Shown: positions 3,669 through 15,864 of the stretch, in pieces
How the letters are laid out: the number at the start of each line of letters is the position of its first letter
How positions within the stretch are numbered: position 1 is the stretch's first letter
Assembly: GCF_964026685.1 (NCBI RefSeq)
Contig: NZ_OZ034688.1
Location: forward strand, 696,442-720,441
DNA length: 24,000 nt
Source: Candidatus Providencia siddallii
GTDB lineage: Bacteria > Pseudomonadota > Gammaproteobacteria > Enterobacterales > Enterobacteriaceae
Reading direction: 5' to 3'
The notes under the pieces: model-generated
What the model saw: only the letters and a program-made list of their open reading frames with translations
Told to the model about the DNA's origin: nothing
Databases searched by the model: none
Program-made: the position numbers and the translations under genes

Positions 3669-5207
3669 TTATTTTATATTAAGTTTTATAAAACTTAAAA
3701 ATCTAAAACCTAATATAAACAATGTAATAAAATAACTTATTCCACCAATAAAAATTACTAAAAATAAATAAAACATTCTTATTAACATACCTTTTTCATA
3801 TATAAAAGGTATACAATCTATCATAATAGATAAAACAGATCCCATAACAAATAAAGCTATTAATAATTTTAAAAAAAATATTTTCCATCCAAATAAAGGT
3901 TTATATATTTTTTGTTTTAATAATTGCCAATACAAAAGACCAGCATTAAAACATGCTGCTACACCTGTAGAAAGAGCAAGGCCAACATGTTGTAATTTTA
4001 TAACAAATATTAAATTCATCAATTGAGTTAAAATTAATGTAAAAATAGCTATTTTTACAGGAGTAACTGTATCCTGCCTAGAATAAAAACCAGGAGCTAA
4101 TATTTTAACTAAAATAATTCCTGTTAATCCTATACAATATGCAATTAAAGCATATTGCGTCATTAATGAATCATAAGCAGTAAAATTACTATATTGAAAT
4201 AATGATATAATTAATATTTTAGATAAAATAGCTAAACCTAATGCGCACGGCAAAGTTAATAATAAACATAAACGCAAACTCCAATCTATTAATTGATGAT
4301 ATTCAATTTTATTATTATTAATAAAACTTTTAGTTAATAAAGGTAATAAAATAGTACTAATCGCAACACCTAAAATACCTGAAGGTAATTCCATTAATCT
4401 ATCTGCATAATACATCCATGAAATTGAACCAGGTTGTAAAAATGAAGCAAATATTGTATTTATAATTAATGAAATTTGCGCAACAGATACCCCAATAATA
4501 GCTGGCCACATCATTTTTATAACCCTAAAAACACCTTGATTTTTAAATGAAAAACGTGGTAAAACTAACATACCAATTTTTTTAAGATAAGGTAATTGAT
4601 ATAAAAATTGTAATAAACCTCCAAATAATACTGACCATCCCAACGCTATAATTGGTGGATTAAAAAATGATGTTGCAAAAATAGAAAATACAATCATACA
4701 AATATTTAATAATGTTGGGGTAAAAGCTGGCACTAAAAAACGATTCCAAATATTAAGAATTGCACCAACAAGAGCACTTAACGAAATAAAAAAAATATAA
4801 GGAAATGTAATACGTAATAATTTTATTGTTAATTCATATTTATTTAAATATTTACTAATACCTGGCGCTGCAAGATAAATTATTCAAGGAGCACTAATAA
4901 ATCCAATAAAAGTTACAATTGAAAGAACTAAAGTTAACATTCCAGCAATATAAGAAATAAAAATACGAGTAGCTTCCTTTCCTTTTTTATTTTTATATTC
5001 AGTAAGTATTGGGATAAATGCTTGAGAAAAAGCCCCTTCAGCAAAAATTCTACGTAATAAATTAGGAAGTTTGAATGCTATAAAAAAAGCATCCGCTGCC
5101 TCCCCAGCACCAAATATTCTAGCAATTATAGCATCACGAATAAATCCAAAAATTCTAGACATTATCGTCATAAAACTAATTTTTGTTAATATTTTAAATA
5201 AATTCAT
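3669..5207 (-). CDS. murJ: Lipid II flippase MurJ (MviN), 512 aa if the single in-frame TGA at 4884-4886 is read as Trp
   Basis: ORF-track fragments 4884..5207 and 3669..4733 are in the same frame, and the stretch between them has no other stop. My translation across the junction is ...[68 protein letters not shown]... The E. coli MurJ sequence from memory is ...MLAAPWVIMVTAPGF...[39 protein letters not shown]. The N-terminus [35 protein letters not shown] also matches. Length is 512 aa versus 511 in E. coli. TAA stop. Confidence 0.9.
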
Positions 5208-6192: not shown

Positions 6193-7101
<909 letters not shown>

Positions 7102-12431: not shown

Positions 12432-13295
12432 TTATATTATATTAGTTATTTTAGAACGAAACTCATGTAATGATGACTTATTTATTCCTTTTACTAAAAA
12501 ACTTTTTATTCATGTTGGAAGATGATTTAATAAATTTAAAGCATCAGAACGTGTTTTAAATTCAGAAAAAATACAAGAACCTGTTCCTGTTAATCTAAAA
12601 GTTGCATATTTTAATAACCAAGAAATAAGTTTATCAATTTTATAAAAACGTTTTCTTACAATATTTTCACAATCATTTGTATAAGGATTAATTAATAACG
12701 TAGATAATTGTTGTTTTGGAGAATCTCTATCTAATAAAGGATCTAAAAAAATTTCTTTAGTTGATATTTTTATTTTATTATTAATAATTAAATACCAATT
12801 TTCTTTTAAAAAAACAGGAGTTAAAACATCACCTATTCCTTCAGCAAACGAAGACTTACCTTTTACAAAAAAAGGTATATCAGCTCCAATAGTTTTACCT
12901 AATTCTGCCAAAACATCATCAGAAACTTTTGTAGACCAATGTTCATTAAGAGCTATTAATGTTGTAGCAGCATTTGAAGAACCACCACCTAATCCTCCAC
13001 CAATTGGCAATCTTTTTTCACAACTTATATCTGCACCTAATGCCTTAGTATATTTTAAAACATTATGACAATAATTCTGTAATAATTTTGCTGCACATAA
13101 AATTATATTATTTTTTACTCCAGGTATTTTATTAAGTATATTAATTTTATTATCTAATCTAGTAGATATAGTTATTTTATCACCATAATTAAAAAAATGA
13201 ATTAAAGTTTGTAATTCATGATAACCATCTTTTCTATAGCCATTTATATATAAAAATAAATTTAATTTGCCAGGAGATGGCCATGTCAGAATCAT
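12432..13295 (-). CDS. ispE: 4-diphosphocytidyl-2-C-methyl-D-erythritol kinase, 287 aa if the in-frame TGA at 12510-12512 is read as Trp
   Basis: The GHMP-kinase motif PIGGGLGGGSSNAATTL is present. The N-terminus MILTWPSPGKLNLFLYI matches E. coli MRTQWPSPAKLNLFLYI, so I prefer the ATG at 13295 over the track's TTG at 13310. After the track's end (...LNHLPT-TGA) the same frame continues IKSFLVKGINKSSLHEFRSKITNII-TAA. This parallels the E. coli C-terminus ...PEWLNGFVAKG.NLSPLH... (from memory). Confidence 0.9.
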
Positions 13296-14664: not shown

Positions 14665-15864
14665 CTATAATAAATTATTTACTGCAAATTGTTTTTTTAT
14701 AATCACATCAACATTATAATCAATATTTTCAAAACCAAATCCAAATAATTGCAAAAATTCTTTTTTATAACCTATATAATCAGTAAATTCACCAAAATTA
14801 TCATTACTTATTTTATTCCAAATATCACGACAACTATTTTGTACATCATCGCGTAATTCTAAATCATCTAAACGCAATCGATTTTTATTATCAGTTATTA
14901 ATAATTTATTACTATATAATTTAGTTGAAAACAAACGTTGTATTTGTTCAATACAACCTTCATTAATATATTTTTCTTTCATAATTTTAAGAATAATAGA
15001 CATGTATAAAGGCATTACAGGAATAGCTGACGAAGCTTGCGTAACAACTGATTTTAACACAACTATATATGCAGAACCTTTTTTTGATTTTAATTTTATA
15101 TCAATAACATTTGCTGCTCGTTCTAAATCTTTTTTAGCTTTTCCTATTGTACCATGCAAATAAATAGGCCATGTAATTTCACTTCCTATATAAGAATAAG
15201 CAATTGTTTTAACATTATTTGATAATAAATTTGCATTATTTAAAACATCTATCCATAACTCCCAATCTTCACCACCCATAACACTAATAGTATCAACAAT
15301 TTCTTGTTTATTAGCTGGTTTTATATCAATTTTAAATAACATATTTTTATTAGTATCTAAAGCAATTGTTTTATAAGATTTACCAATTGGTTTCAAAGTT
15401 GATCGAACAATTTTACCAGTTTTAGGAATTTTACGTTGTGATGATGCTATTGAATAAACTATTAAATCTAATTTAATTGACTCCTTTTTACATAAATCAA
15501 TAACACTTTTTTTACATTCATCAGAAAAAGCATCCCCATTGATATTTTTTACATATAATCCTTCTTTTTTAGCAGCATGACTAAAACTAGCTGAATTATA
15601 CCAACCAGCAGAAGCTGTTTTATTCATACCTCCTTGTTTTTCAAAAAAAACACCTATCGTATTAGTTTTAGCACCAAACGCTAAACTAATACGAGAAGAA
15701 AGACCATAACCAGTTGATGATCCAATTATTAATGCATTCTTAGGGCCGTCTTTAAATTCACCGCAAGATTTTACATAAGAAATTTGATTAAGTACGTTAA
15801 CTTCACATCCAATAGGATGCGAAGTTGTACAAATATATCCACGAATTTTAGGTTTTATAATCAT
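14665..15864 (-). CDS. fabV: Enoyl-[acyl-carrier-protein] reductase, FabV type (trans-2-enoyl-CoA reductase family)
   Basis: From the ATG at 15864 the product starts MIIKPKIRGYICTTSHPIGCE, the canonical FabV N-terminus; the track's earlier start at 15879 is a TTG. Other matching segments are the GSSTGYGLSSRI nucleotide-binding motif, YSYIGSEITWPIY..GTIGKAKKDLE (Tyr...Lys catalytic region), VLKSVVTQASSAIPVMPLY and NRLRLDD.ELRDD. About 399 aa. TAG stop. Confidence 0.9.
   Translation of the reverse strand: MIIKPKIRGYICTTSHPIGCEVNVLNQISYVKSCGEFKDGPKNALIIGSSTGYGLSSRISLAFGAKTNTIGVFFEKQGGMNKTASAGWYNSASFSHAAKKEGLYVKNINGDAFSDECKKSVIDLCKKESIKLDLIVYSIASSQRKIPKTGKIVRSTLKPIGKSYKTIALDTNKNMLFKIDIKPANKQEIVDTISVMGGEDWELWIDVLNNANLLSNNVKTIAYSYIGSEITWPIYLHGTIGKAKKDLERAANVIDIKLKSKKGSAYIVVLKSVVTQASSAIPVMPLYMSIILKIMKEKYINEGCIEQIQRLFSTKLYSNKLLITDNKNRLRLDDLELRDDVQNSCRDIWNKISNDNFGEFTDYIGYKKEFLQLFGFGFENIDYNVDVIIKKQFAVNNLL

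Follow-up and report, generated by a model that had tools for sequence, protein, structure and literature searches.

In bacteria where genetic code 4 has fully replaced code 11, prfB has been lost, UGA codons read as Trp are found in 50-70% of the genes, and some of these lineages carry a UCA anticodon (PMC10540940). A less advanced state was described for Candidatus Providencia siddallii from the bacteriome of the leech Haementeria acuecueyetzin (hereafter PSAC), whose genome of 756 kbp (22.0% G+C, 610 CDSs) contains in-frame UGA codons in 125 of the 610 CDSs, mostly by UGG-to-UGA change, along with only 4 pseudogenes (Manzano-Marín, Kvist & Oceguera-Figueroa 2023, evad164, PMC10540940). Those authors saw in the pattern a "likely intermediate stage" of the passage from code 11 to code 4: the PSAC tRNA-Trp retains its CCA anticodon and carries two unique loop mutations, prfB, the gene for release factor 2 (RF2), is kept and itself holds an in-frame UGA, and at least nine genes, including kdsA, may still stop on UGA (PMC10540940). 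An effect of a 3' A on read-through was invoked in that account for prfB only, and no genome-wide test of context was reported; the reassignment itself was reported without mass spectrometry, and the authors called for proteomics (PMC10540940). Its main text names ispE only for the sister strain PSLP, as a readthrough candidate, and does not single out the ispE of PSAC (PMC10540940).

Here, we analysed a stretch of 24,000 nucleotides of the PSAC genome (contig NZ_OZ034688.1, positions 696,442 to 720,441; hereafter the window), with a G+C content of about 21%. It carries, in order, argS, murJ, tRNA-Ser, kdsA, prmC, prfA, ychF, pth, prs, ispE, lolB, fabV, tRNA-Leu/Cys, pgsA, mscM, psd, orn, and tRNA-Gly; its 4 tRNAs do not include tRNA-Trp, and prfB lies outside it. 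For comparison we used the sister strain PSOF, the symbiont of H. officinalis, whose syntenic sequence lies on CVRF01000002.1 (loci L001 and L014). The enterobacterial synteny lolB-ispE-prs is present in the window, and locus L014 of PSOF has the same gene order. As a side observation, FabV (14665-15864, minus strand) has as its closest relatives besides PSOF, among the matches listed, Serratia symbiotica, Ewingella, and Rouxiella (about 63-64% identity), with no free-living Providencia among the matches listed (best 120), unlike IspE, where the matches next in rank to P. siddallii are from free-living Providencia.

The ispE gene, which encodes the GHMP kinase 4-diphosphocytidyl-2-C-methyl-D-erythritol kinase, contains an in-frame TGA near its 3' end, and the features of the locus are as follows.

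12432..13295, minus strand: the whole of ispE when read with code 4 (287 aa, then TAA)
12510..12512, minus strand: in-frame TGA of ispE, codon 262, followed by A (TGA-ATA), at an invariant Trp position
12435..12509, minus strand: C-terminal tail of IspE, IKSFLVKGINKSSLHEFRSKITNII, 25 sense codons
12432..12434, minus strand: TAA, the effective terminator of ispE, 18 nt upstream of the prs GTG (12413)

Around the TGA, the minus-strand frame runs ...CTT CCA ACA TGA ATA AAA AGT..., and the 18-nt spacer between the ispE TAA and the prs GTG contains AAAGGG. A sequence-only reading of this DNA had placed the TGA at 12510-12512 and a TAA at 12432-12434, 18 nt before prs, and these coordinates are exact. 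The ispE ATG (13295-13293, minus strand) shares an ATGA overlap with the lolB TGA. When open reading frames were called with table 11, ispE appeared as a product of 266 aa that starts at an upstream TTG and is cut at the TGA. Read with code 4, the protein matches the Candidatus Providencia siddallii IspE in CAL1329518.1 / WP_341764973.1 at 100% identity across its 287 aa, and in that record the TGA codon is already given as Trp. The ispE TGA is an instance of the UGA-to-Trp reassignment published for PSAC in 2023; it is annotated in GenBank and RefSeq and was thus already known. From the comparisons given below, we consider it very probable that this TGA is read as Trp within a partial change from code 11 to code 4, and that a full-length IspE of 287 aa is made.

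A stop-free run of at least 25 codons follows about 8-11% of the TGA trinucleotides in the window, so an open extension of this length is unremarkable by itself and the case rests on homology. Against the NCBIfam model TIGR00154 for IspE, the score rose by 12.6 bits, from 255.8 bits for the protein ending at the TGA to 268.4 bits with TGA read as Trp, and coverage of the 294 model positions extended from 3-269 to 3-290; both forms pass the curated cut-off of 138.7 bits. We also built a family HMM from the best 119 database homologues of IspE, with the query left out, in which the full-length protein scored 447.7 bits versus 410.4 bits for the truncated one (+37.3). When the tail was replaced by 1000 shuffled versions, the scores averaged 417.6 (SD 2.0, maximum 427.0), and none of the 1000 matched the full-length score, which corresponds to z = 15 for the real tail. 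Trp occupies the column of the TGA in 119 of 119 homologues, and Trp at codon 262 scored ~6.4 bits above every other residue tried in this HMM. By these profile comparisons, the 25-codon tail is homologous to the C-terminus of IspE.

The conserved positions tell the same story residue by residue. Of the eight tail columns with conservation of at least 95% in the family, seven are kept (F266, G270, N272, S274, L276, H277, and R280), the sole change being P275 to S, and this rate is no different from that in the body of the protein, where 103 of 116 such columns are kept. In a phmmer search against solved structures, the query aligned through residue 278 to the E. coli-type proteins 8qc7, 8qcc, and 1oj4, with the tail alignment reaching E. 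coli IspE residue 280. In the alignments to 8qc7 and 8qcc, the query segment 'nhlptWiksflvkginksslhe' lies opposite 'eqapeWlngfvakgvnlsplhr'. The sequence-only reading had put the Trp of the E. coli C-terminus opposite the TGA, and had paired FLVKGIN with FVAKG.N and SSLH with SPLH; its version of the E. coli C-terminus was right, including the position of the Trp, and the same pairing is seen in the phmmer alignment. The C-terminal pattern W-x3-F-x3-G-x-N-x-S-x-L-H is complete only if TGA is Trp, in which case it comprises W262, F266, G270, N272, S274, L276, and H277. Upstream in the same protein, the glycine-rich ATP-binding motif of GHMP kinases, LPIGGGLGGGSSNAAT, occupies residues 96-111 in alignment with E. 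coli IspE, and G99, G101, G103, G105, S106, S107, N108, A109, and A110 are invariant in the IspE alignment. When the 287-aa protein was modelled with AlphaFold2 on an alignment of 32 sequences, the mean pLDDT was 65.6; the tail was predicted as a strand (264-271) and a helix (275-282) with pLDDT of about 50-75, and this confidence is too low to bear on whether the fold requires the tail.

Conservation of the tail beyond the stop codon is, taken alone, not proof of translation, since a recent nonsense mutation would look alike. Under that alternative, TGG mutated to TGA a short time ago, the TGA is a genuine stop, IspE ends at 261 aa as a functional protein or a young pseudogene, and the tail is a remnant that has yet to decay. 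Two properties of the tail lean this way: the near-invariant P275 has changed to S, and the ratio of pN to pS between PSAC and PSOF (Nei-Gojobori) is somewhat higher in the tail (0.329/0.543, i.e., 0.61) than in the body (0.186/0.455, i.e., 0.41), although the tail has only 25 codons, compared at high divergence. A comparison with a sister strain had been proposed from the sequence as a way to look for purifying selection after the TGA, and these ratios speak neither for nor against it. On the other side, the tail has lost conserved columns no faster than the body and stands far above its shuffled versions, and the segment that a stop would remove holds the family-invariant W262, F266, N272, and S274. 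The sequence-only reading had argued that a motif conserved past a stop codon is hard to explain unless the codon is translated: the conservation it saw is real and translation of the TGA is supported, but conservation was insufficient by itself, and what decides the matter is the pattern across the genome.

That pattern is visible within the window, where two further genes carry in-frame TGA codons.

4884..4886, minus strand: sense TGA of murJ, codon 108 (TGA-ATA), followed by about 400 intact codons
22793..22795, plus strand: sense TGA of orn, codon 143 (TGA-AAA), upstream of the conserved THQA motif

The murJ TGA aligns to the W in 'AAPWIIY' of the solved MurJ structure 7waw, and the orn TGA to the W in 'RRWKPE' of 7vh4, the top match among solved oligoribonucleases, with E. 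coli 1yta scoring equally for Orn. The public records give a MurJ of 512 aa and an Orn of 179 aa, each with W at the TGA site. Table 11 calling cut orn to 142 aa and split murJ into pieces of 107 and 354 aa, and any code-11 gene track of this window is therefore wrong at ispE and orn, which it truncates, and at murJ, which it splits. In a codon-level alignment, PSOF has TGG at all three sites, with the ispE TGA (codon 262) lying opposite TGG codon 264 of PSOF, and in-frame TGA codons were absent from the 14 PSOF orthologues compared. Among 15 genes of the window, no in-frame TAA or TAG was found. This absence matters, because TGG can mutate to TAG by a G-to-A change as easily as to TGA.

These observations weigh heavily against a recent nonsense mutation in ispE. 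In murJ, TGG has likewise become TGA at codon 108 of 512, and in orn ahead of the THQA motif, places where truncation is implausible; stop codons of the other two kinds are missing from the 15 genes even though TAG was equally accessible; and the published genome shows a like pattern in 125 genes with only 4 pseudogenes (PMC10540940). Because TGA is the sole stop codon involved, always in place of a Trp codon and in essential genes, with no in-frame TAA or TAG, recoding explains the data better than a recent nonsense mutation, and we regard a genuine stop at the ispE TGA as improbable. Translation of the ispE TGA, as first proposed from the sequence, is instead supported by the homology of the tail, the invariant Trp, the TGG codon of PSOF, and the parallel cases of murJ and orn. 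Two traits of code-4 genomes are thus present: in-frame UGA at conserved Trp positions of several intact essential genes (ispE, murJ, and orn), and a lack of comparable in-frame UAA or UAG codons, which sets the pattern apart from general pseudogenisation.

The same data bear on a sequencing or assembly error, in which case the true codon would be TGG, from which TGA differs by one base. Such an error would have to account for three independent TGG-to-TGA differences in 24 kb, all of them third-position G-to-A changes of Trp codons, and for the 125 affected genes genome-wide (PMC10540940), and the public record has the same sequence; this explanation is extremely unlikely. Scarcely any more credit can be given to another form of UGA recoding, either insertion of selenocysteine or a programmed readthrough directed by a local RNA signal. 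UGA does encode selenocysteine, and recoding in general is known to involve local stimulatory structures. In the IspE family, however, all 119 homologues have Trp in this column, and none has Cys or selenocysteine. A 99-nt segment covering the ispE TGA and the sequence 3' of it folded no better than shuffled sequences (z = 0.00), and an Rfam search of the window matched only tRNAs and no SECIS-like element. Selenocysteine at the ispE TGA was excluded on these grounds, namely the missing local RNA signal and the invariant Trp.

While reading of the ispE TGA as Trp is the favored explanation, the reassignment in the window is far from complete. Only 3 of the 63 Trp codons (5%) are TGA, the other 60 being TGG, whereas the codon pairs AAR, GAR, CAR, TTR, and AGR are 90-95% A-ending. 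By this comparison, TGA is far from being a freely synonymous Trp codon, and UGA is not the prevalent Trp codon that code-4 genomes rich in A+T display. Nor does UGA seem to have ceased to be a terminator, as two genes have a TGA at their natural C-terminus.

6220..6222, minus strand: TGA of kdsA (TGA-TTT), apparent terminator at the natural C-terminus, aligned with the TAA of PSOF kdsA
13292..13294, minus strand: TGA of lolB (TGA-TTC), aligned with the TGA stop of PSOF lolB, part of the ATGA shared with ispE

KdsA matches its profile NF009109 to the very end (281 of 281 positions) before the TGA. From these alignments, kdsA and lolB appear still to stop at TGA. Such apparently surviving terminators, together with the nine genes and the retained prfB of the published account (PMC10540940), speak in favor of a genuine stop in ispE. 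The annotation of KdsA is split between a submitters' version of 284 aa, with UGA as stop, and a RefSeq version of 293 aa, with UGA as Trp; the read-through (window 6193-6222, minus strand) adds just 9 residues, WFLYLFFLF. LolB occurs in the public records only in its read-through form of 219 aa, with the extra residues WFWHGHLLAN (window 13262-13294, minus strand). PSOF uses TGA as the stop of both mscM and lolB; the mscM of PSAC ends on TAA. The lolB gene is absent from the nine that the paper lists as possibly keeping a UGA stop (PMC10540940), and it is possibly a tenth such gene.

The two sets of UGA codons differ in the base that follows them. An A comes directly after each of the three sense UGAs (TGA-ATA in murJ, TGA-ATA in ispE, and TGA-AAA in orn), and a T after each of the two apparently terminal ones (TGA-TTT in kdsA and TGA-TTC in lolB). 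A follows only 21 of the 60 TGG codons in the window. The chance that three of three sense UGAs would have A at the +4 position is ~0.055, which, with five sites in all, is suggestive only. The A at +4 fits the 3'-A effect on readthrough by tRNA-Trp that was cited for prfB (PMC10540940). We accordingly raise, as a tentative idea that we think has a smaller chance of being right than wrong, that UGA in PSAC has a dual meaning set by context, Trp before A and stop before U. If the pattern were to hold over the ~125 sense and ~10 terminal UGAs of the genome, it would constitute context-dependent dual decoding in a bacterium during a change of code, and if dual decoding were true, lolB would take its place as the tenth gene keeping a UGA stop.

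Taken together, the data are best explained by the following course of events. Under mutation pressure toward A+T, TGG became TGA at many Trp codons of the PSAC lineage, and decoding of UGA as Trp led to the partial, 'intermediate' shift from code 11 to code 4. At ispE, the ribosome would insert Trp at codon 262 and continue for 25 codons to the TAA before prs. We infer that near-cognate reading of UGA by tRNA-Trp(CCA) competes with a weakened supply of RF2, and the A directly after the ispE UGA may favor readthrough. Because of this competition between tRNA-Trp(CCA) and RF2, some termination at the ispE UGA may persist, with some truncated product alongside full-length IspE. The tryptic peptide SDALNLLNHLPTWIK is the predicted mark of UGA readthrough in IspE, and a truncated product would end in ...NHLPT.

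No new biology comes from the ispE TGA itself; the finding is of practical use as a check, in that the code-4 signal was correctly detected by a reader from raw sequence. The wider interest lies in PSAC itself, where a bacterial code change seems to have been caught midway, with RF2 and an unmodified tRNA-Trp anticodon both present, and which thus bears on how the reassignment of a stop codon begins.

Compared with the reassignment published for PSAC (PMC10540940), the ispE TGA is a case of that very phenomenon in the same genome, with nothing different in substance. It resembles the situation in Mycoplasmatales/Entomoplasmatales, Hodgkinia, Zinderia, Nasuia, and Stammera in that UGA comes to mean Trp through UGG-to-UGA change in the setting of genome reduction (PMC10540940). 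Unlike the complete code-4 lineages, PSAC keeps prfB as well as trnW(CCA) (PMC10540940), TGA accounts for only 5% of the Trp codons in the window, and some genes end on TGA. The likely mechanism here is the one known from E. coli, where wild-type tRNA-Trp reads UGA leakily and a 3' A is favored (Engelberg-Kulka 1981, as cited in PMC10540940). In E. coli, such readthrough is an error that occurs at a low level at genuine stops, whereas in PSAC the same process would need to yield functional amounts of essential proteins.
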